Shown: in pieces, positions 4,599 to 50,359 of the stretch
Numbering within the stretch: the stretch's first letter is position 1
How the letters are laid out: every line of letters starts with the position of its first letter
Assembly: GCF_009931435.1 (NCBI RefSeq)
Contig: NZ_CP043414.1
Reading direction: 5' to 3' (one strand)
Length of the DNA stretch: 64,000 nt
From: Escherichia coli
Lineage (GTDB): Bacteria; Pseudomonadota; Gammaproteobacteria; Enterobacterales; Enterobacteriaceae
The notes under the pieces: generated by a model
The model's input: the letters and a program-made list of their open reading frames with translations, nothing else
Database searches by the model: none
What the model was told of the DNA's origin: nothing
Program-made: the position numbers and the translations under genes

Positions 4599-4910
4599 AA
4601 GTATGTACACGGGCAGCACGACGCTGCCCGATTGCTTTCTGGTTCAGAATAATTCGTCCTACTCATTCTTCTTCCCCTTTTTTAAATACTTTTTCATCTT
4701 GTTTCGGACTGTCATGTAATTCGCAAAACAAAGATAAATGTGCTAATCCATCCCATGGAATATCGCCAGAATAAAGCAGGTAATTTTTTGATTTTTACGC
4801 CATGATAGAAGTCTGGAAGAAAAAGGCTTTCTGCGATCACAGTCGAGCCGGGCGGGCCAGGCCAAATGCTAAAATAAGCACAATTTACTGACTCATTTTG
4901 AGGTAACGCT

Positions 4911-6662: not shown

Positions 6663-8087
6663 TTACTGCATTAACAGATAGATGGTGCTGTCGCCGCGCT
6701 GAATATTCAGTGCCAGCACAGACGGTTTGCTGTCGAGAACTTTACGCAGTTCAGCGATGTTTTTCACTGCCTGCTGGTTCGCACCAATAATCACATCACC
6801 TTTCTTCAGGCCGATCTGCGCAGCTGGAGTGCCCGTTTTCACGTTGTTCACCACCACGCCCTGATCTTTGCCTTTGTTGCTCATCTCAGCGCCTTCAATG
6901 CCGTTGAAGATGGTGCTGGAATCAACCTGATTCTGGCTGCTCTGCTGCAGTTCCAGGTTCACGTTAACCTGCTTCCCGTCGCGCAGTAAGCCCAGGGTCA
7001 GTTTGCTGCCTACCGGCATAGTGCCCACCTGAGCACGCAGTGCGGCAAAGCTGCTGATTGGCTTACCGTTCAGTGAGGTGATCACATCACCCGCTTTAAT
7101 GCCCGCTTTCGCGGCGGAAGAATTCGGCAGAACCTGGCTTACGAAAGCACCGCGCTGGGCGTCAACTTTCATCGCTTTCGCCAGATCGGAGTTCAGCTCA
7201 GTCCCCATAATACCCAGCTCACCGCGTTTCACCTGGCCGTATTCCACCATCTGCGAGGTCAGGTTTTTCACCATGTTACTCGGGATAGCAAAACCGATAC
7301 CGATGTTGCCGCCGTCCGGTGCGAGGATCGCGGTGTTGATACCGATCAGTTCGCCGTTCAGGTTAACCAGCGCACCACCGGAGTTACCACGGTTGATCGC
7401 AGCATCGGTCTGGATGAAGTTTTCATAGTTTTCGGCATTCAGACCGCTACGCCCCAGCGCAGAGACAATCCCGGAAGTTACCGTCTCACCCAGACCAAAC
7501 GGGTTACCAATTGCTACGGTGTAATCACCCACGCGCAGTGCATCAGAATCCGCCATCTTAATTGCGGTCAGATTTTTCGGGTTCTGGATCTGGATCAGCG
7601 CGATATCAGAGCGCGGATCTTTGCCAACCATCTTCGCGTCGAACTTACGACCATCGCTCAGCTGGACTTTAATCACCGTCGCGTTATCAACAACGTGGTT
7701 GTTGGTGACGACATAGCCTTTATCGGCATCAATGATGACGCCGGAACCCAGCGCCATGAATTTCTGTTGCTGGCCGCCGCCATTACCGCCCTGGCCCCCC
7801 TGGCAGAACGGAGAGCTCTGGAACGGAGAACCTTCCTGGCAGAACGGAGAATCATCACCGAAGAACTGCTGGAAATTACGCGGCATACGCGGCGTATTAA
7901 CGGTTGTGCTACCTTCTACGTTAATGCTGACCACTGAAGGCATCACCTTTTCGAGCATCGGTGCAAGGCTTGGCATCTGCTGGGCTGTCGTTGCTGAAGA
8001 AGTCTCAGCCGCCGTTGCAGAGAGCGGAGATAACGCCAAACCTAAACTCAGAGCCAGTGCACTCAGTGCTAATGTGGTTTTTTTCAT
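6663..8087 (-). CDS. degP: periplasmic serine endoprotease DegP/HtrA
   Basis: 474-aa ORF with signal peptide, trypsin-like catalytic region (GNSGGAL) and two PDZ domains. Confidence 0.95.
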   Translation of the reverse strand: MKKTTLALSALALSLGLALSPLSATAAETSSATTAQQMPSLAPMLEKVMPSVVSINVEGSTTVNTPRMPRNFQQFFGDDSPFCQEGSPFQSSPFCQGGQGGNGGGQQQKFMALGSGVIIDADKGYVVTNNHVVDNATVIKVQLSDGRKFDAKMVGKDPRSDIALIQIQNPKNLTAIKMADSDALRVGDYTVAIGNPFGLGETVTSGIVSALGRSGLNAENYENFIQTDAAINRGNSGGALVNLNGELIGINTAILAPDGGNIGIGFAIPSNMVKNLTSQMVEYGQVKRGELGIMGTELNSDLAKAMKVDAQRGAFVSQVLPNSSAAKAGIKAGDVITSLNGKPISSFAALRAQVGTMPVGSKLTLGLLRDGKQVNVNLELQQSSQNQVDSSTIFNGIEGAEMSNKGKDQGVVVNNVKTGTPAAQIGLKKGDVIIGANQQAVKNIAELRKVLDSKPSVLALNIQRGDSTIYLLMQ

Positions 8088-8132
8088 GTATTTCAGTCTC
8101 GATTAACAGATAACGCAAAATTGCTGTGTTCT

Positions 8133-8160
8133 TCAGATTCGTTTTATAGCGCGAAGTTCC
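8133..8160 (-). promoter_or_regulatory. sigmaE-type promoter upstream of degP
   Basis: on the minus strand GGAACTT, 16-bp spacer, TCTGA, about 45 bp upstream of the degP start; GTAAA-type CpxR half-sites lie further upstream. Confidence 0.55.
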
Positions 8161-8216
8161 GAACTAAAGTTTCTGCAAAAGGTAAAAATTTATTGTTCGT
8201 CTTTACAAAAGCCTGG

Positions 8217-9734
8217 TTATTGTTCTACGGCCATCAGACGTCGGTATTCATCCCAGGCATAGAGGTCGGTCATACCGCTGATATAATCCTGCAGCAGGCG
8301 GCAACGGTAATAATATTCCCATAGCGGAAACTCAGGAGAATCTGACGGTAATTTACTGACAGCCTCGACATAGGCCAGCCGATGGCGCGTCGAGAGTTTG
8401 TGGAATAAGCGCGATTCAATAGGGAAACGTTTCACCCGTTCTTTTTCTACCAGTTCAGTAAAGTCTGATAACGACAGGCTTAATAAAGGGCGATAAATCT
8501 CTAATAATCCGCTAATGACCCGATAGCCCTGCAATTCAAGCTGCTCGACATCTGGATGGCTAAACACATGTTTTACAGCGACATTTTTATATAGCTTTAG
8601 AAGATCGCTGCATTCGCTGGCATCTTCCAATAATGCATGATTAAACGTTCCGGCGAAAATCGCAGGCAGATTATCAATAAATCGTTGTGCCGCGTAGGGT
8701 ACCAGTTTATTTAGGGTGTTTACCCGTAAATACATAAAAAACTGATCTTCCGTACTGCGGCTTAAACTATTTGAGCGTGATTTTTCCCAGGCATTTTCAA
8801 CCACCAGCGAAAAGAGCGAACCTTTCTCATGCTGGCCCCACGCTTCGTGCAAATGATGATAAAGCTGCTCAACGCTGAATATTCTTTTCTCTACCGCATC
8901 TTCAAGATCTGCCACACAATAGGAGATGTCGTCGGCAGCTTCCATAATCCACGTTAATGGAAAACGACTGTAAAGCGCCAAATTAAGTTCTTTACGCAAC
9001 CGGGCAATATAGGCTTCTTCAGAAAGATAATAACCCGGCTTTTTCATTAAATAGTGATGTGTCTCAGGCGTTTCACCACGCCACCACGCCGGACGAGTAT
9101 ATTTTAAAATACCGCCAACCTGTGCCCAGGTGAGATTCATCCGCATCAATGTATGCACCAGACGAATGCCTTGTGCATTCCCCTCAAAATGACATAAGTC
9201 CTGACGTATTTTGCGCCGCAGCTCGTTAAGCGGTTCTTCCCCGTCCCGTAAACGTAGTGCTGCCACGCTGCAGCGATCGTCAGTCAGAGGCTGGCTTTCG
9301 GCATCAGCCGGATACAAACGCTGGCGAAACCAGTCATTTATCGCCGCTTCGCCAAAATGGCCAAACGGCGGATTGCCGATATCGTGCATCAGGCATGACA
9401 TCTCAACAATACTTTCAAAAGGGCCGGTCAGTTCATCCAGACCATACTCTTCCAGTAATTTAAGCTCTTTCAGACGGCTTAAAATTTCTTTGGCGATGTA
9501 GCGCCCCACCTGCTGGACTTCCATTGAATGGGTAAGACGCGTGCGCACGGCGGCATTTCGCTCCAGCGGAAAAACCTGGGTCTTTTGTTGCAGACGACGA
9601 ATTGCCGGAGAGTTGATAATACGCCCGCGATCGCTCTCAAAGATTCGCAGGATCTCATGTTCGGTTTTAACGCCCTGTGGTGAACGGTAACGACGATGCC
9701 AGTTTATTTTTTTTCGGAAATCAATCTGTGCCAT
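8217..9734 (-). CDS. dgt: dGTP triphosphohydrolase
   Basis: 505-aa ORF with HD-domain motifs ([10 protein letters not shown]). Confidence 0.93.
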
Positions 9735-24240: not shown

Positions 24241-24333
24241 GCTTTTTCTCCGCAATATTCAGGCGCAAAAGCCCGATTTTCTGTTCTTCTGTAACAAGAC
24301 AGAAGAAGATATCTCTCAAATTTACTTTGGTCT

Positions 24334-26763
24334 TCATGAATACTTTTTCGTCCGTCGCGTCGGTGCGGTATTTGCCGGATCATCCGGCCAGACGTGTTTG
24401 GGATAACGCCCTTTCATCTCTTTTTGCACCTCGCGATACGCACCTTTCCAGAAGGCGCTCAAATCTCGTGTGATTTGCAGCGGCCTTTGGGCAGGAGAAA
24501 GCAACTCCAGCACCAGCGGCACACGCCCCTGGGCGATCGTCGGATTGGTGGCCTCGCCAAACATCTCCTGCATTCTCACCGCCAGCGCGGGCGGGTTATC
24601 TTCATGGTAACGAATGGCGATCCGGCTCCCCGTCGGCACAGTGTAATGCGCAGGCAATTCACTATCCAGACGTTGCTGCATCCCCCAATCAAGTAATCCG
24701 CGTAGCGCCTGATAAATATCGAGTGATTTCAGGCCGCGTAGCGAATGTACGCCTGCCATATGCGGCAGTAGCCACGTTTCCAGCGTCGCCAACAAACTTG
24801 CATCATCAACCGCTGGCCAGTCATATTCCGGCAACCACTTTGCGGCGCATAACAAACGCAAGCGTAGCTGTTCCGCTTCCGCCGTCCAGTTGAGCACGCT
24901 TAAACCTTTATCACGAATGCCGTTAAGCATTGCCTGATGCAACTCGTCTTCCGAGGGTTTCGCCAGCGGCTGCACTTTCACCGTCAACTGACCGATTTGC
25001 AGCCGACGCCACGCTTTCAGCGTACCTTGCGCATCATCCCACTCCACAGTGTCAGACTGCTGTACCAACTGCGGACAGCGTTGTACTAATTCATCGATAT
25101 CGACCGGTAGCGCCAGTAAAATCCGCGCATCCGGCGAGGCGCTGCCCTGCAATAATAACGGTGCGATCAACCATTCGTGGCGGCTTAGCGCATCGTCGGC
25201 ATCGAGCATTGCCCCCATGCCGTTTGCCAGTTGATAGCGTCCATCTTGCCCACGGCGACGAGCAATGCGATCGGCATACGCCCCGGCAAGTAGCGGCGCG
25301 ATAAGAGAACTGTCTGCCTCACCGCCGCGTACGTTTAAACGTTTTAACAGTTGCTGGCTACGTTGCTGCCAGGCAGGTTGATTGCGCGAAAACGCCACAT
25401 CCAGATCGATATTGCCCATCCGTGGTGGCTCTTCGAGAATAGCGGCAATTTTTGCAGCGGTAGCAGCTTCGTCGTCGCTCCTTGCGCTCACCAGCATTGC
25501 CGCTAAACGCGGATCGTTACCCAGCGTCGCCATTTTCTGCCCTTTCGTGCTTAGCCGTTCACCGTCCATCGCCCCCAGCATCCGTAACAGGCGTTTCGCG
25601 GCCTGTAAATTCACGGCTGGCGGTTGATCCAGCCAGCTCATCTGCGTCGGATCGCTGCATCCCCATTGCAGTAATTCCATCAGCAAACCGGAGAGATCGC
25701 TTTGTAAGATTTCCGGTTCACTTTGCGCGGAGGCGCGTTCTGCTTGTTCTTTGGCGATTAAATGTAAACAGATCCCCGGCTCCAGACGTCCGGCACGCCC
25801 GGCGCGTTGCGTCATTGATGCCTGGCTAATGCGTTGGGTAATCAGCCGCGTTAGCCCCGTGCGCGGATCAAAGCGCGCCACACGTTCCTGAGCACAATCC
25901 ACCACCAGACGAATACCTTCGATGGTTAAACTGGTTTCAGCAATATTGGTTGCCAGCACCACTTTGCGCATCCCTTCTGGTGCCGGAAGGATCGCTTTTC
26001 GCTGATCGTTCAGCGACAACGCGCCATACAGCGGGCAGAGCAACACATCACTACCGATGCGCGAAGCTAGTTGTTCCTGAACGCGCTGAATTTCTCCGAC
26101 ACCAGGTAAAAATAACAGTAATGAGCCGCTTTCCTGATGCAGCAATTCGGCGGTGGCAACCGCCACGGCTTCATCAAAACGCTGATGAGCGAGCAGCGGT
26201 AAATATCGGCGTTCAACCGGAAATGAGCGCCCTTCTGAGATGACGACGGGCGCTTCTGGCAGCATCTGCTGCAAGCGGTCATTGTCCAGCGTAGCCGACA
26301 TAATCAGTAGTTTAAGGTCATCACGCAGACCTTGTTGCACATCGAGTAACAGCGCCAACGCCAGATCCGCCTGCAAGCTGCGCTCATGAAACTCATCGAG
26401 GATCACCAATCCAACGCCGCTCAGTTCAGGGTCACGCTGGATCATGCGCGTCAACACGCCTTCGGTAACTACTTCCAGGCGAGTATTTGGCCCGACACAG
26501 TTTTGCGCGCGCATCCGGTAGCCTACCGTATCACCTGTTTTTTCGTTAAGCAGTTCCGCCAGTCGTTGCGCAACGTTACGCGCCGCCAGGCGACGCGGCT
26601 CCAGCAGGATAATTTTTCCGTTAATGCCGGGATGCGCCAGCAGTTGCAGCGGCAGCCAGGTTGATTTCCCGGCCCCGGTCGGCGCACTTAATAACACCTG
26701 CGGTGCACCATCGAGGGCAGCAAGTAACTCAGGTAAGACGGCGGCAACGGGCAACGACGACAC
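24334..26763 (-). CDS. hrpB: ATP-dependent RNA helicase HrpB (DEAH-box)
   Basis: ORF 24334..26808; start placed at the GTG at 26763 (VSSLPVAAV, 809 aa); motifs GAGKST and DEFH. Confidence 0.9.
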   Translation of the reverse strand: MSSLPVAAVLPELLAALDGAPQVLLSAPTGAGKSTWLPLQLLAHPGINGKIILLEPRRLAARNVAQRLAELLNEKTGDTVGYRMRAQNCVGPNTRLEVVTEGVLTRMIQRDPELSGVGLVILDEFHERSLQADLALALLLDVQQGLRDDLKLLIMSATLDNDRLQQMLPEAPVVISEGRSFPVERRYLPLLAHQRFDEAVAVATAELLHQESGSLLLFLPGVGEIQRVQEQLASRIGSDVLLCPLYGALSLNDQRKAILPAPEGMRKVVLATNIAETSLTIEGIRLVVDCAQERVARFDPRTGLTRLITQRISQASMTQRAGRAGRLEPGICLHLIAKEQAERASAQSEPEILQSDLSGLLMELLQWGCSDPTQMSWLDQPPAVNLQAAKRLLRMLGAMDGERLSTKGQKMATLGNDPRLAAMLVSARSDDEAATAAKIAAILEEPPRMGNIDLDVAFSRNQPAWQQRSQQLLKRLNVRGGEADSSLIAPLLAGAYADRIARRRGQDGRYQLANGMGAMLDADDALSRHEWLIAPLLLQGSASPDARILLALPVDIDELVQRCPQLVQQSDTVEWDDAQGTLKAWRRLQIGQLTVKVQPLAKPSEDELHQAMLNGIRDKGLSVLNWTAEAEQLRLRLLCAAKWLPEYDWPAVDDASLLATLETWLLPHMAGVHSLRGLKSLDIYQALRGLLDWGMQQRLDSELPAHYTVPTGSRIAIRYHEDNPPALAVRMQEMFGEATNPTIAQGRVPLVLELLSPAQRPLQITRDLSAFWKGAYREVQKEMKGRYPKHVWPDDPANTAPTRRTKKYS

Positions 26764-31139: not shown

Positions 31140-31612
31140 CAGTGGCGTATATTGCTATCGGCAGCAATCTGGCCTCTCCGCTGGAGCAGGTCAATGCTGC
31201 CCTGAAGGCAATAGATGACATTCCTGAAAGCCGCATTCTTGCCGTTTCTTCGTTTTACCGCACCCCACCACTGGGGCCGCAAGATCAACCCGATTACTTA
31301 AACGCAGCCGTGGCGCTGGAAACCTCTCTTACAGCTGAAGAACTCCTCAACCACACACAGCGTATTGAGTTGCAGCAAGGTCGCGTCCGCAAAGCTGAAC
31401 GCTGGGGACCGCGCACGCTCGATCTTGATATCATGTTGTTTGGTAATCAGGTCATAAACACTGAGCGCCTGACCGTTCCGCACTATGATATGAAGAATCG
31501 TGGATTTATGTTGTGGCCGCTGTTTGAGATCGCGCCGGAACTGGTGTTTCCTGATGGTGAAACGCTGCAAGCAAGACTCACTACTTTCCCTCCCTGCCCA
31601 CAGCACTGGTAA
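31136..31612 (+). CDS. folK: 2-amino-4-hydroxy-6-hydroxymethyldihydropteridine pyrophosphokinase
   Basis: 158-aa ORF recognised as HPPK; start overlaps the pcnB stop (ATGA). Confidence 0.93.
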
Positions 31613-32115
31613 ACCACATTTCTGGAAAAGCGTATTGGGTAATGCAATGTTGTATAATATTATTTTATAGTTTCAATGAATTAATTCTCTCTCCCCCATC
31701 ATAAAAATCACAAAAAAACAGCATTAAACATATAATTACGGCAAATATATTTTCATTACCTATATTAACTTTTCTCTTTATAAGAGGTTTTTAATGATAA
31801 TGAACCAGTTTATTCTGGGTACTATGCCTCACTCCCGGTATTAGCACTGGATAGCGCTTAACTGGATTCTGTCAGGCTGGGACGGGGCAACAAGAGCATA
31901 CAACGACCAGTCCTTAACGCGTGATTATTAATTTCTACAGCGTATCATCATATTATTTAAATCTGCCCAACCTCACCAAATACATTCATAAAATGCATAA
32001 TGATAATAAATCATAAAATACATTCACCGAAGATATTTCTCTTTAAAGAGCGTGACATTTATAATAAGTATTGGTGAGAAAAATCACCCCCATTAATTTT
32101 TATAAGGATATTCCC

Positions 32116-32685
32116 ATGTTAAAAAAAAGTGCTATTGCTGCGGCATTAGTGATGTTCACCACTTCTGCTTTCGCGCTGGATGGCGGTCAATTAGATTTCG
32201 CGGGTTTGGTGAGTGACAACACTTGCGTCTTGCACGTCAACGGTGGCGCCCAGGACGGTCAGATTACCCTGCAAACCGCCACAACCACTGAAGTTAATCA
32301 GGCCGGTGTTGTCCAACTTGCCAGCCCTGGCGCAAAACCGGAAGCCTTCTCTATTACGATCGATTGCTCGGACGATCCACAGGGCGCCTCTGCCAATCTG
32401 AGCATGGGTTCCGTGTTCTTCAGCAACAGTCAGGGCACTCTGAACAACGATCTCTCCATTAGCCAGGCGGCTACCGGGGTCGCGATTGCCATTCACTACC
32501 TTACCGATGCCACTACCTACGAACAGATGAGAGTGAACGACAGCACTGATGTTAAAAACCTGCTGTTTACCAACGGCAAAGCGGTTTACAACTTTAAAGC
32601 GTCATATGTAAAACAGGCAGCAACAGTTAACGCAACGGCAGGTTATGTCAAAACCAACGCCGCTTATACAGTGACTTACCAGTAA
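32116..32685 (+). CDS. yadN: fimbrial major subunit, YadN family
   Basis: ORF 32071..32685; start placed at MLKKSAIAAALVMFTTSAFA (signal peptide); C-terminal ...YTVTYQ donor-strand motif; first gene of the operon next to folK; appears to be a divergent allele. Confidence 0.8.
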   Translation: MLKKSAIAAALVMFTTSAFALDGGQLDFAGLVSDNTCVLHVNGGAQDGQITLQTATTTEVNQAGVVQLASPGAKPEAFSITIDCSDDPQGASANLSMGSVFFSNSQGTLNNDLSISQAATGVAIAIHYLTDATTYEQMRVNDSTDVKNLLFTNGKAVYNFKASYVKQAATVNATAGYVKTNAAYTVTYQ

Positions 32686-32742
32686 ATATCTGCATCACCC
32701 GACAGCCCACGGGCTGTTGGGTCACTCAATAAGGATAGTGTT

Positions 32743-33486
32743 ATGACCAGGATGTGTCAGTTTATTGTTTCCACTGCTTTCGTCGCATCGACAGCCGTTT
32801 TCAGCCTCACCGCGCAAGCAGATATTGTGCTTTCCGGTACGCGCATTATTTATAATGCCGACCAGAAAGACGTCACATTGCGCATGGAAAACAAAGGTGC
32901 CCGCCCACTATTAGTTCAGACCTGGATTGATACCGGCAGCGAAAATGCCGACCCCAGCACACTGAAAGTGCCTTTTACCGTGACGCCGCCGGTTTCCCGC
33001 GTTGATGGTAAAAAAGGCCAAACGGTTAAAATTGCCTGGAGCGCCAGCCAGACCCTTCCAGCCGATCGCGAAAGCGTTTATTGGTTCAATGCGCTGGAAG
33101 TTCCCCCCAAGATGAACGATGCCGATGCCAAGGGAAAAAACATTCTGCAATTGGCTTTCCGTACCCGTATCAAGCTGTTCTATCGCCCAACCGGCCTGGC
33201 GGGTAACCCGGCTGATGCACCAAAACAGTTAACCTGGCGTCTCCAGTCTTCAGCCGGAAAAGTGGTGTTGCAGGCAACAAACCCAACGCCTTATCACGTC
33301 TCATTCAGCAGTATTACCCTTGCCTCAGGCGGTAATAAATATACCGTGGAAAGCAGTATGGTCGAGCCCAAAAGCAGTGCGGAAATGGTGGTAAAAGGCG
33401 CTCCCCGTTCTGTGTCTGGCGCAACAGTTGAGTACTCAGCCATTAATGATTTTGGCGGTGGCATTGACGGCAAAGTCAAACTTTGA
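32743..33486 (+). CDS. ecpD: PapD-like periplasmic fimbrial chaperone
   Basis: 247-aa ORF with signal peptide and chaperone N-domain sequence (DIVLSGTRIIY...LLVQTWID); symbol by synteny (yadV/ecpD). Confidence 0.8.
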   Translation: MTRMCQFIVSTAFVASTAVFSLTAQADIVLSGTRIIYNADQKDVTLRMENKGARPLLVQTWIDTGSENADPSTLKVPFTVTPPVSRVDGKKGQTVKIAWSASQTLPADRESVYWFNALEVPPKMNDADAKGKNILQLAFRTRIKLFYRPTGLAGNPADAPKQLTWRLQSSAGKVVLQATNPTPYHVSFSSITLASGGNKYTVESSMVEPKSSAEMVVKGAPRSVSGATVEYSAINDFGGGIDGKVKL

Positions 33487-33518
33487 TGCCCACAGACGAG
33501 ATCGGCTGAGATCGTACA

Positions 33519-36125
33519 ATGAAGATCCCCCACGATGGCAAAAGAATTCAACGATCGCCGCTCGCTTGCCTGATTGCGTGTAGCCTGCTGCCCTGCACAC
33601 AAAATGTGTGGGGGGCAAACGAGACCGTTGAGTTTGATAACACGTTCCTGATGGGCGCAGGTGCCAGAGATATTGATGTCAATCGTTACAGCAAAGGTAA
33701 CGCAACATTGCCGGGGCGCTATGACGTCAGCGTGTTTATTAATAACCAGGCCAGCGCCAATCTGAAAATCGAGTTTATTGAATTAGACCCTGAACACGCT
33801 GCTCAGCCCTGTATCTCCACCAACACATTATTACAACTGCATATTCGCCAGCCAGAAAAGTTAGCGGATAACGCAATTTTGCAAAAACGCGAAAATGCTG
33901 CGCAGGATTGCCTGAACGTAGAGGTTGCTATTCCGCAATCGAGCGTCGCTTACAATAGCAACGATCAGCGGCTTGATATCAGCATGCCGCAAATCTGGCT
34001 GCAGAGAACCTATGCCAACTATGTCGATCCGTCGCTGTGGGATGAAGGCATCAATGCCGCAATGCTCTCTTACACCCTTAACGGCTGGCGCAGTGAATCC
34101 CCCAATCAAACCACAGAAACCAGCTACGCCGGACTGATGGGCGGTATCAATTTATGGGGATGGCATTTTCGCTCACATGGTAACTATTCGTGGGACAAAG
34201 AAGACGGCGGCAGTTTTGAATTTCAGGATAAATATCTGCAACGCGATATCGCCGCGCTCCGCTCTCAGCTGGTAATGGGTGAAACCAATACCACAGGAGA
34301 AACCTTCGACTCGGTGCCTATTCGCGGGCTGCGACTCTATAGCGAAAGCCGCATGTTGCCCCCTACGCTGGCGTCGTATGCGCCTGTTATCCGTGGCGTG
34401 GCAAACTCTAACGCGAAAGTCACGATCACCCAAAACGGTTATAAAATTTATGAAACGACCGTGCCGCCTGGTCCATTCGCGATTGACGATCTCACGCCGG
34501 CAGGGTTCGGCGCCGATCTCGAGGTGACCATCACCGAATCGGACGGTTCAAAACGTACGTTTAGTCAGGCTTATTCATCGGTGATCCAGATGATGCGTCC
34601 CGGCGTGGGCAAATGGGATATCAGCGCCGGTGAGGTCAATAAAGCGGAACTCCAGGATAAACCTAACCTGCTGCAAGGTACCTACTATTACGGGTTGAGT
34701 AACACCTTCACCGGCTACACCGGCCTGCAAATGACCGATAACGGTTACTGGGCCGGTTTATTAGGGGTGGGCATGAATACATCGCTGGGCGCTTTCTCCT
34801 TCGATGTTACTCAGTCTCATGCCGAAATTCCTGACGATAAAACCTATAGTGGACAGAGTTACCGTGTTTCATGGAACAAATATTTCGCCCCGACCGAAAC
34901 CTCACTCAACATTGCCGCCTATCGCTACTCCACTGAAAACTATCTGGGGCTGAACGACGCGTTAACGCTGATTAATTCTGCCAACCATCCTGATGAAGAA
35001 GGCTATTCGGGGATTGTCAGTTATGCACGCATGAAAAATCAGTTCAGCGTTAGCATTAATCAAACGTTAAAAAGTGATGAACGTGACTATGGCTCTTTCT
35101 ATGTGAATGGCACATGGACAGATTACTGGGTAACCAACGAATCACAGAGCAGTTTTGCCTTTGGCTACAGCAATGCCTTTAACTGGGCGAGCTACAGCGT
35201 CAGCCTGCAACGGACATACGATGAAGACAATAAGAAGGATGACTCGATTTATCTGAGTGTGACCATTCCGCTTGATAAACTGCTTGGCCGCGATAGCCAT
35301 CAGGGCGGGTTCAAAACCCTGAACACCAGCGTTAACAGCGACATGAAAGGGAGCTCACAATTTAACGCCAATGCCTCGGGCTACAGCCAGGATAATCGCT
35401 GGAGTTACAGCGTGAATACCGCCTATAACGTGCAGAAAAACAGCGACAGCCTGAAAAGTATCAGCGGTTATACCAGCTATGAGTCGCCGTGGGGAACATT
35501 TTCAGGCTCAGCCTCCACCAGCAGCGATCGCTCACGTCAGTATGGGCTCAGCACCGATGGCGGTTTTGTACTCCACCGCCACGGTCTGACCTTCAGTAAC
35601 GACAGTTTTACCGACTCTGACACGTTGGCGCTGATCAACGCCCCGGGTGCAAAAGGCGCGCGCATTAACTTTGGTAACAGCACCATCGACCGTTTTGGCT
35701 ACGGCGTGACCAGTTCACTGTCACCGTACCGGGAAAATACCGTCGCGCTCGATGTTAACGATCTGGATAACGACGTGGAGCTCAAAAACACCAGTAGCGT
35801 CGCCATTCCGCGCCAGGGTTCCGTCATTTTCAGCCACTTTGACACCGATACCGGGCGCTCCGCCATTCTCAATTTACTGCGTAGCAACAATCAGCCCGTG
35901 CCGTTTGCTTCCGATATTACCGACGAAAAAGGGACCTCTATCGGGACCGTCGGTCAGGGCAGTCAGGCATTTGTACGCGGCATTGCCGACAGCGGTGAAC
36001 TGACGGTCACCTGGTATGAGAAAAATAGTCGCCAGCAGTGCCGTATTCATTATCAGATACCGTCATCACCCACCATGACCGGTAAAACCATCGTACTCAA
36101 CGGCGTGCCATGCACCCAGCAATAA
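33519..36125 (+). CDS. htrE: fimbrial outer-membrane usher
   Basis: 868-aa ORF, size and sequence typical of FimD/PapC ushers; symbol by synteny. Confidence 0.85.
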   Translation: MKIPHDGKRIQRSPLACLIACSLLPCTQNVWGANETVEFDNTFLMGAGARDIDVNRYSKGNATLPGRYDVSVFINNQASANLKIEFIELDPEHAAQPCISTNTLLQLHIRQPEKLADNAILQKRENAAQDCLNVEVAIPQSSVAYNSNDQRLDISMPQIWLQRTYANYVDPSLWDEGINAAMLSYTLNGWRSESPNQTTETSYAGLMGGINLWGWHFRSHGNYSWDKEDGGSFEFQDKYLQRDIAALRSQLVMGETNTTGETFDSVPIRGLRLYSESRMLPPTLASYAPVIRGVANSNAKVTITQNGYKIYETTVPPGPFAIDDLTPAGFGADLEVTITESDGSKRTFSQAYSSVIQMMRPGVGKWDISAGEVNKAELQDKPNLLQGTYYYGLSNTFTGYTGLQMTDNGYWAGLLGVGMNTSLGAFSFDVTQSHAEIPDDKTYSGQSYRVSWNKYFAPTETSLNIAAYRYSTENYLGLNDALTLINSANHPDEEGYSGIVSYARMKNQFSVSINQTLKSDERDYGSFYVNGTWTDYWVTNESQSSFAFGYSNAFNWASYSVSLQRTYDEDNKKDDSIYLSVTIPLDKLLGRDSHQGGFKTLNTSVNSDMKGSSQFNANASGYSQDNRWSYSVNTAYNVQKNSDSLKSISGYTSYESPWGTFSGSASTSSDRSRQYGLSTDGGFVLHRHGLTFSNDSFTDSDTLALINAPGAKGARINFGNSTIDRFGYGVTSSLSPYRENTVALDVNDLDNDVELKNTSSVAIPRQGSVIFSHFDTDTGRSAILNLLRSNNQPVPFASDITDEKGTSIGTVGQGSQAFVRGIADSGELTVTWYEKNSRQQCRIHYQIPSSPTMTGKTIVLNGVPCTQQ

Positions 36126-36141
36126 TGTTCCAGGAGAGGAA

Positions 36142-36714
36142 ATGAGAGCTTTTTTACTACCGCCCCTGCTGCTGCTGACGTCGCTTTGTCTGCGCCCCGC
36201 ACTGGCAACCGATCTTTCGGTGAACTTTACCGCGACCATCAAAGAGACGACCTGTGCCATGACGCTCAACGCATTGAATGGGGCCAATATCAGCGGTGAT
36301 ACCGCAACAAATAACTATTATCTGGATCTGCCTGATATGGGTGTTTCAGACATTGTGAATAAATCGTCACTGTCGGAGGCTAATTTTAAAATCCTTGCCA
36401 GCAATTGTAATAACTATATTTCCGGCCTGTCGATGACCCTCAATGGCGCAGTCAGCAGCTATACAGATTCGTTAATCGGTAATGACCAGACCGTTTCCGG
36501 ACATACCAACTATGTTGGTCTTGGTATTAAACGTATGAACGCTGATGAAAATCTCCGCTTTAAACTCAACGGTAGCCAGCGAGTTACCTGGACGAATGAT
36601 GAAATAAGTAATGGATTAGATCTTACAGCCATGCTTCGTCAGACCACCACCGGGAATACGATCACCACAGGCCAATTCCAGGCCAAAGTGACTTTCGTCT
36701 TTACCTACCAATAG
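36142..36714 (+). CDS. yadM: fimbrial minor subunit, YadM-like
   Basis: 190-aa ORF with signal peptide and C-terminal VTFVFTYQ. Confidence 0.75.
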   Translation: MRAFLLPPLLLLTSLCLRPALATDLSVNFTATIKETTCAMTLNALNGANISGDTATNNYYLDLPDMGVSDIVNKSSLSEANFKILASNCNNYISGLSMTLNGAVSSYTDSLIGNDQTVSGHTNYVGLGIKRMNADENLRFKLNGSQRVTWTNDEISNGLDLTAMLRQTTTGNTITTGQFQAKVTFVFTYQ

Positions 36715-36719
36715 CAGGT

Positions 36720-37322
36720 TTGTTTATGAATTATCACAATATAACCTTTGTCTTGCTGCTGTGCTTTGGATATATCGCCATCGGCCACGCCGCCAGTAGC
36801 TCTATGGACGTTACGGTACGTGCTAAGGTCACTGCCAGTACCTGCACGGCGGAATTACGCGATGCGCAGGATCAGCAAGCCACCACCATCGCTATTGGCG
36901 ATGTCTATCTCAACGAGCTTTCCGCTAAATCGAAATACCAGAACTTCAGCCTGGTGTTTTCAAACTGCGAAGGGTTAGCAAAGGATCAGGCAAAAGTTGT
37001 GCTTTCTGCACAGACGGGCTGCGATGGCGCTTCCAGTACCGGTGGCGGATACCGTAATGCACTGACGACGGCGGACGATGATGCGGCAACCGGTGTTGCG
37101 GTTGAAGTGTGGACGACCAATCAGCCAGAAGGTCAGGGCAGCATTCAGCTTAATTGTAAAACCAAACCGACCAGTATTGTTGATTTAGCTGCGGCAACAG
37201 GCTCGAATATTGTCCAATGGCCGCTCAGTGCCCGGATTGTAGTAGCTTCCGATAACACCATCGCTGATGTACGCGCCGGGCAATTCTCCACTAATGCAGT
37301 CTTTTCTGTGACCTATGAGTAG
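36720..37322 (+). CDS. yadL: fimbrial subunit, YadL-like
   Basis: 200-aa ORF with signal peptide, Cys pair and C-terminal VFSVTYE. Confidence 0.75.
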   Translation: MFMNYHNITFVLLLCFGYIAIGHAASSSMDVTVRAKVTASTCTAELRDAQDQQATTIAIGDVYLNELSAKSKYQNFSLVFSNCEGLAKDQAKVVLSAQTGCDGASSTGGGYRNALTTADDDAATGVAVEVWTTNQPEGQGSIQLNCKTKPTSIVDLAAATGSNIVQWPLSARIVVASDNTIADVRAGQFSTNAVFSVTYE

Positions 37323-37895
37323 ATGATTATGAAAACAGTTATCTACATGATTGCGTTTTGGTTTTCTTACAACGTCATTGCAGCCAGTACCAATATTAAT
37401 ATGACTGCCAATATCATCAGCACCAGTTGCCGGGTCACGCTCGACAATAATGGAAATATTGATTTAGGCACAGTGGATTATAGCTATCTGAATAATAATA
37501 CCTCTGTCGATCGCGTCTATTCTGGCGGGCACCCCTTTTATATTACCGTCAGCGACTGCGCGCAGGTAGCGGGGAAAAATCCGGCCCACCTGACCGTCAG
37601 CTTTACGCCTTTGGCAGGCACCCTTGCGCCAACCAACCTCCAGGTATTCGCCAACCAGCAGGTCAACGGTGCAAAAAATGTCGGCGTGGTTATTTTATCG
37701 ACCGAGGACGCACAGCATATTTTCAATGTGCTCGACACGCGTGGTCAACCGCAAAGTATTTACCCCGTGACGCCCGAAACGATCGCTAACGCGACATACC
37801 ACTTTTACGCTCGGATGCAAAAAATTGACCCTACACAAGCGGTAACCAGCGGCGTGGTAAAAGCGAGCGTATTTGTTGGGGTTTATTATGAATAA
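37323..37895 (+). CDS. yadK: fimbrial subunit, YadK-like
   Basis: 190-aa ORF with signal peptide and C-terminal FVGVYYE; start abuts the previous stop. Confidence 0.75.
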   Translation: MIMKTVIYMIAFWFSYNVIAASTNINMTANIISTSCRVTLDNNGNIDLGTVDYSYLNNNTSVDRVYSGGHPFYITVSDCAQVAGKNPAHLTVSFTPLAGTLAPTNLQVFANQQVNGAKNVGVVILSTEDAQHIFNVLDTRGQPQSIYPVTPETIANATYHFYARMQKIDPTQAVTSGVVKASVFVGVYYE

Positions 37896-37921
37896 TCTAT
37901 ATCACTCTCAAGGATGAAGAG

Positions 37922-50215: not shown

Positions 50216-50359
50216 TTGCTGACAAAGTGCGCTTTGTTCATGCCGGATGCGGCGAAAACGCCTTATCCGGCCTACTAAAACTCGCAAATTCAATAAATTG
50301 CAGAGTTCACGTAGGCCTGATAAGCGTAGCGCATCAGGCAGTTTTGCGTTTGTCAGCAG
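50216..50359. repeat. REP pair (BIME) in the gcd-cueO intergenic region
   Basis: GCCGGATGCGGCGAAAACGCCTTATCCGGCCTAC and inverted GTAGGCCTGATAAGCGTAGCGCATCAGGC; flanked by inverted 10-mers TGCTGACAAA / TTTGTCAGCA. Confidence 0.8.

Follow-up and report, generated by a model that had tools for sequence, protein, structure and literature searches.

The 129-bp intergenic region between dgt and degP described here is almost certainly the classical envelope-stress control region of Escherichia coli degP (htrA). It is the K-12 degP promoter itself, carried by another E. coli strain, and it is a recorded CpxR target with nothing new about it. The region lies on an E. coli chromosome, in a stretch of 64,000 nucleotides that was analyzed as a whole and is called the window below, and it is the only gap ahead of degP. 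The sequence, the geometry, the identity with K-12, and the conservation were computed here, and the mapped start, the σE and Cpx dependence, the σE occupancy, and the listing of the CpxR sites were taken from published papers. The degP promoter is a founding example of both σE-dependent transcription and Cpx regulation, and fusions of degP to lacZ serve as standard reporters of envelope stress. The regulatory architecture was recognizable from the sequence alone, and the biology gains nothing new from it. Two side points may be of mild use: the minority spacer allele in K-12, and a conserved TATAAA in the spacer that coincides with a second start in related genera.

The genes around the intergenic region are as follows.

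8217 to 9734, minus strand: dgt, encoding the dGTPase (open reading frame list; NCBIfam NF003429, 895.6 bits; RefSeq annotation in K-12 and in a strain that is 100% identical).
8219 to 8217, minus strand: the stop codon of dgt, at which the intergenic region starts.
6663 to 8087, minus strand: degP (htrA), 474 amino acids, with its ATG at 8087 (open reading frame list; RefSeq annotation).
6526 to 5351, minus strand: cdaR, the third minus-strand open reading frame after dgt and degP (open reading frame list).

The degP product scores 935.5 bits against the equivalog NF008189 (NCBIfam serine endoprotease DegP; cut-off 720). With a 601-bp query around the site, matches were obtained in 5424 of the 5426 complete E. 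coli genomes, and dgt and degP are annotated on either side of the site in all of the matching genomes. Three of the 5424 matches to the promoter region lie on records labeled as plasmids, which may be misassigned replicons or plasmid-borne chromosomal fragments.

Compared with K-12 MG1655 (NC_000913, 180755-180883), 127 of the 129 intergenic bases are the same, and both differences fall in the spacer of the σE promoter, at positions −25 and −24 (window 8152-8151), which read GC in the window and AG in K-12. The window carries the majority allele, as 4016 of the 5424 complete E. coli genomes are identical to it across the 80 nt from 8200 to 8121, and the AG form of K-12 belongs to the remaining 1408. 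Because most other genera have GCG at these positions in the alignment, the AG allele would be the derived one, suggesting that the K-12 reference probably carries a derived minority spacer allele.

Apart from the stretch 31561-39271 described below, the window and K-12 124.8-189.7 kb are collinear and share 91-97.6% identity. The K-12 gene yaeI (~840 bp, K-12 184257-185069) has no counterpart at window 4634-4760, where only ~127 bp separate the yaeH-side and dapD-side matches. For the 7.7 kb from 31561 to 39271, megablast gave no match with the fimbrial operon found at this place in K-12, yadC-yadK-yadL-yadM-htrE-yadV-yadN, and the stretch is either a divergent or a replaced fimbrial allele. 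The window has ~120 bp more than K-12 between panC and rpnC (40940-41058), and ~115 bp that K-12 has between hrpB and mrcB are absent from it (24324-24337). In addition, the plus strand at 50277-50318 gave an Rfam match to the ES036 (CssrF) sRNA (RF02751, 41.3 bits; gathering score 37.6).

Downstream of the dgt stop codon, the minus strand of the region 7900-8500 reads ...CCAGGCTTTTGTAAAGACGAACAATAAATTTTTACCTTTTGCAGAAACTTTAGTTCGGAACTTCGCGCTATAAAACGAATCTGAAGAACACAGCAATTTTGCGTTATCTGTTAATCGAGACTGAAATACATG. The original prediction had placed σE −35 and −10 elements on this strand, separated by a 16-bp spacer, and both are base-accurate. The elements of the core promoter and of the transcribed leader are listed below, with positions relative to the start in parentheses.

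8160 to 8154 (−33 to −27), minus strand: the σE −35 element GGAACTT, identical to the consensus of Rhodius 2006.
8153 to 8138, minus strand: the spacer CGCGCTATAAAACGAA, exactly 16 nt, with the GC/AG polymorphism at 8152-8151 and TATAAA at 8148-8143.
8137 to 8133 (−10 to −6), minus strand: the σE −10 element TCTGA.
8127, minus strand: the transcription start (+1, A), transferred from the K-12 start at NC_000913 180844 via the alignment of the window with K-12.
8082 to 8127, minus strand: the HtrA 5′-UTR RNA thermometer, matched by Rfam RF02700 with 77 bits (gathering score 52).

Rhodius 2006 (PMC1312014) describes σE promoters with GGAACTT at −35, TCAAA at −10, and a purine at +1, a spacer of 15-19 nt with a strong preference for 16, and a discriminator of 5 or 6 nt. 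The paper also reports UP-like stretches rich in A and T ahead of the −35 element, with peaks at −48/−49 and −57/−58. For the degP promoter, GGAACTT is the exact consensus, whereas TCTGA agrees with TCAAA in just three of the five positions (T, C, and the final A). Over the 30 nt preceding the −35 element, the A+T content is 73%. The degP promoter fits the σE class in every testable feature except a perfect −10. Of all genes induced upon overexpression of rpoE, degP responded most strongly (by 56-fold in the array data and by 64-fold in qRT-PCR; PMC2731931), and in Salmonella a σE ChIP-seq peak with a consensus motif was found at htrA (PMC4577112).

A single degP start is given for K-12 by Kim 2012 (PMC3415461, supplementary file 2), at NC_000913 180844 with a UTR of 40 nt, and the sequence upstream of it ends ...GGAACTTCAGGCTATAAAACGAATCTGAAGAACA, also written ...TCTGAAGAACA. 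The supplements of Mendoza-Vargas 2009, which hold transcription start data, have no entry for degP. This start, as measured in K-12, corresponds to A8127 in the window, which follows the 5-nt discriminator AGAAC and lies 6 nt past the last base of TCTGA, within the 6-8 nt that had been predicted. Between the −10 element and the degP start codon lie 45 nt, and the start leaves a 40-nt UTR, in line with the earlier claim that the promoter lies at the right distance from degP.

The range originally assigned to the promoter, 8133-8216, begins directly after the stop codon of dgt and closes with the final A of TCTGA, and it omits both the start at 8127 and the distal CpxR site degP2. The RNA thermometer at 8082-8127 also went unmentioned. 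The RF02700 match is full length (model 1-46 of 46), and its first base is A8127, the same base as the mapped start, which it supports independently. The thermometer hairpin has a 5-nt loop and a bulged C, and in it UUUU pairs with GAGA of the Shine-Dalgarno sequence (8100-8097). The minimum-energy fold recovers this hairpin, which is weak (−3 kcal/mol, z = +0.87). The weak fold was set aside as an argument against a thermometer, because only marginal stability is to be expected of an RNA thermometer, given how it works, and because the covariance score is far above the threshold. The HtrA 5′-UTR thermometer has been documented in Salmonella (PMC5602114).

Three CpxR features were located upstream of the core promoter.

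8182 to 8206 (−79 to −55), minus strand: the proximal CpxR element GTAAAGACGAACAATAAATTTTTAC, 25 bp, the first 15 nt of which are the literature site degP1.
8206 to 8192 (−79 to −65), minus strand: degP1 (htrA), GTAAAGACGAACAAT, a known CpxR site (PMC9600279 Table S1).
8342 to 8356 (−229 to −215), minus strand, inside dgt: the distal CpxR box degP2, GTAAATTACCGTCAG (PMC9600279 Table S1).

Both degP1 (htrA) and degP2 are among the 41 known CpxR sites (PMC9600279 Table S1), and both 15-mers were found verbatim in the window. GTAAA is present at 8206-8202 on the minus strand, 42 nt upstream of the −35 element, and a second copy, in inverted orientation, occupies plus-strand positions 8182-8186, 22 nt upstream of the same element. 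The proximal dyad reads GTAAA-GACGA-ACAAT-AAATT-TTTAC, in which the outer pentamers are inverted copies of each other and the invariant CAATA lies at the center. The predicted CpxR half-sites are present, and degP1 is listed in the literature; their arrangement is an inverted pair around the conserved CAATA and not the canonical direct repeat. Against GTAAA-N5-GTAAA, degP1 has three mismatches, all in the second half (ACAAT vs GTAAA), and degP2 has two.

The dgt gene of strain AR216.2b (NZ_CP043942.1) is interrupted by an IS903B element, beyond which the sequence matches the window again from 8355, right at the degP2 box.

Published descriptions have degP regulated by both σE and CpxR. The expression of degP was 26.6-fold higher in cpxA24 and 32.4-fold higher when NlpE was overexpressed (PMC9600279 Table 1). 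The envelope-stress control ascribed to degP from the promoter sequence is matched by responses of 56-fold to σE (PMC2731931) and 27-32-fold to Cpx induction (PMC9600279). Overexpression of CpxR alone did not induce degP, which was attributed to its σE dependence, with σE being limiting (PMC2731931). This failure under limiting σE is consistent with CpxR acting jointly with EσE, and the coupling between CpxR and the polymerase at degP is not simple.

Consensus scans of the 64-kb window were not a source of evidence for these sites. The scanning for σE and CpxR sites that was proposed along with the original prediction was carried out with consensus patterns and did not discriminate. For GGAACTT-N16-TCAAA with up to two mismatches, 7 matches were obtained against 5.1 expected, and for GTAAA-N5-GTAAA with up to two mismatches, 64 against 46.6 expected, degP1 with its three mismatches not being among them. 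Both counts are near background, and scans of this kind were rejected as evidence. The pattern GGAACTT-N16-TCNNA has a single occurrence in the window (0.09 expected), and 9% of shuffles contain it at least once. The exact GGAACTT-N16-TCTGA also occurs once in the 64 kb, against 0.11 expected; this count is circular, the TCTGA in the pattern being degP's own sequence. A full-text literature search with the promoter sequence returned a primer in a Chlamydia paper as its sole match.

Motif counts alone are barely above chance. If they were the only evidence, the motifs could be chance resemblances, with degP transcribed by read-through from dgt or from elsewhere. The background-level counts of the consensus scans agree with such an origin, as do the generic scan of 7950-8450, which detected no σ70 promoter and no terminator between dgt and degP, and the long Salmonella transcripts that begin inside dgt (PMC5602114). 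Against it, the mapped K-12 start falls on the predicted base, and published data report σE occupancy by ChIP (PMC4577112) and 56-fold induction (PMC2731931). The conservation of the region, described below, also speaks against it, since it is precisely the −35 and −10 blocks that hardly vary between genera, in surroundings that do.

For the conservation analysis, one genome per species was scanned for relatives of DegP, and 80 loci in about 30 genera of enterobacteria were obtained. The 160 nt preceding degP were aligned as 75 distinct sequences, and each column was scored against the window. The values for the blocks, all over the 75 distinct sequences, are given below in order along the minus strand, with CAATA placed at the center of the dyad.

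Segment after the dgt stop codon: 0.54.
TTGTAAAG (−81 to −74): 1.00.
CAATA: 1.00.
TTTTTAC (−61 to −55): 0.98.
Linker from TTTTTAC to the −35 element: 0.64.
GGAACTT: 0.97.
TCTGA: 0.97, by column.
Discriminator: 0.51.

The −35 element has only two variants, GGAACTA in the Enterobacter cloacae group and TGAACTT in Kosakonia and relatives. At −10, 65 of the 75 sequences have TCTGA, 6 have TCTTA, and 3 have TCTCA, such that the pattern TCTNA is found in 74 of 75. The spacer is 16 nt almost everywhere and 17 nt in a few orthologues. In several genera, 5-8 additional bases are present between the −10 element and the conserved leader, indicating that the promoter and the leader are separate modules. 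The proximal site degP1 is invariant across genera, whereas the distal site degP2 is kept only within Escherichia; outside Escherichia degP2 is variable, and it was rejected there as a conserved element. The contrast between conserved motif blocks and variable linkers is the strongest computed evidence that the motifs are functional.

The site is raised above chance by its intergenic position, the mapped start, and the cross-genus conservation. Chance resemblance with read-through is already refuted by the mapped start together with the conservation pattern, and we regard it as having practically no probability.

The A/T-rich sequence that is conserved ahead of the −35 element, and TTTTTAC in particular, could be read differently, as an UP element for the α subunit or as a site for another factor, and not as a CpxR half-site. 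The A/T-rich peaks at −48/−49 and −57/−58 reported for σE promoters in Rhodius 2006 (PMC1312014) fit an UP element, as does the 73% A+T in the 30 nt above the −35 element, and the match to the CpxR consensus is statistically weak. Conversely, the invariant TTGTAAAG at −81 to −74 is out of the reach of an UP element, and the 15-mer starting at this block is the literature CpxR site (PMC9600279), with degP showing a Cpx response of 27-32-fold (PMC9600279). An UP element also needs no inverted GTAAA pair, yet the pair is present. An UP element in place of the CpxR half-site is improbable. The two roles are compatible with each other, and TTTTTAC could serve as an UP element in addition.

The spacer of the σE promoter raises a further alternative, in which a σ70-type promoter lies beside the σE promoter, uses TATAAA in the spacer, starts at the G of TCTGA (8134, 47-nt UTR), and is activated by CpxR, either in place of EσE or in addition to it. 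TATAAA (8148-8143) is exact in 59 of the 75 distinct sequences, which exceeds what a σE spacer needs. In Salmonella, a start with a 47-nt UTR has been reported as constitutive (PMC5602114), and by geometry it is the G of TCTGA. In Klebsiella pneumoniae, a start falls on the same G (207608, 25 reads), and another degP start lies 8 nt after TCTGA (207617, 11 reads). Counted from a start at 8134, the 25-bp CpxR element would cover −72 to −48, with its center at about −60.

Several observations speak against this σ70-type promoter. Only 180844 is given for degP in the K-12 dataset (Kim 2012), and the σ70 consensus scan of 7950-8450 returned no promoter, no −35 element being recognizable. TATAAA occupies −14 to −9 relative to a start at 8134, 2 nt further upstream than the canonical −10 hexamer, and the lack of degP induction by CpxR overexpression was ascribed to σE dependence (PMC2731931). 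A σ70-type promoter would, moreover, supplement the σE promoter and not replace it. An overlapping promoter of this type at degP is plausible, and its presence as described, with activation by CpxR, is a tentative possibility. The fuller version, in which the σE and σ70-type promoters are interleaved on 35 bp and the CpxR dyad signals mainly via Eσ70, is in our view rather doubtful. If it were true, the two envelope-stress pathways would reach degP via different holoenzymes and not through synergy between CpxR and EσE. Interleaved promoters in E. coli would then refine a textbook promoter and would not constitute a new type of system.

The preferred reading therefore remains the classical σE and CpxR control of degP, which would operate as follows. 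EσE would initiate at A8127 from GGAACTT/TCTGA, 40 nt ahead of the degP ATG. Misfolded outer-membrane proteins cause σE to be freed from its anti-sigma factor RseA, a step that belongs to established pathway knowledge. Phosphorylated CpxR, the response regulator of CpxAR, would bind the 25-bp element at −79 to −55, and possibly also the weaker site inside dgt, and its binding would increase degP transcription upon protein misfolding in the periplasm or at the inner membrane. We infer that CpxR contacts the σE holoenzyme, and not a separate σ70 promoter. The 40-nt leader would fold as the HtrA thermometer, masking the ribosome-binding site at low temperature.

Among known systems, the σE regulon promoters described in Rhodius 2006 share with the window the perfect −35 element, the 16-nt spacer, the 5-nt discriminator, the purine start, and the A/T-rich upstream region. 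The degP promoter of the window differs from them in having TCTGA and not TCAAA at −10, and in carrying an upstream response-regulator site in addition.

For the canonical CpxR promoters, such as that of cpxP (GTAAAACAACGTAAA), the site is a direct repeat, GTAAA-N5-GTAAA. Promoters of the cpxP type share with degP the perfect first GTAAA, the position upstream of the core promoter, and the strong Cpx induction. In contrast to these promoters, the second half-site of degP is degenerate, the element is a 25-bp dyad and not a simple direct repeat, and it sits above a σE promoter.

For Salmonella enterica htrAp3, GGAACTT-N16-TCTGA, the 45-nt distance to the ATG, the 40-nt UTR from the same A, and the thermometer hairpin are all the same as in the window. 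The start at A8127 is the equivalent of the start of the Salmonella 40-nt UTR, and the transcript with this UTR (htrAp3) was stress-only in the first study (PMC5602114). The degP promoter of the window is orthologous to htrAp3. Salmonella htrA differs in having two further starts, one with the 47-nt UTR and one with a 215/449-nt UTR from inside dgt (PMC5602114), whereas only one degP start is present for E. coli K-12 in the Kim 2012 dataset.

Finally, the K-12 degP promoter lies at the same locus, between the same flanking genes, as that of the window, and it agrees fully with the latter in the −35 and −10 elements, the CpxR element, the start site, and the 5′ UTR, the GC of the window in place of the AG of K-12 in the spacer being the sole point of difference.
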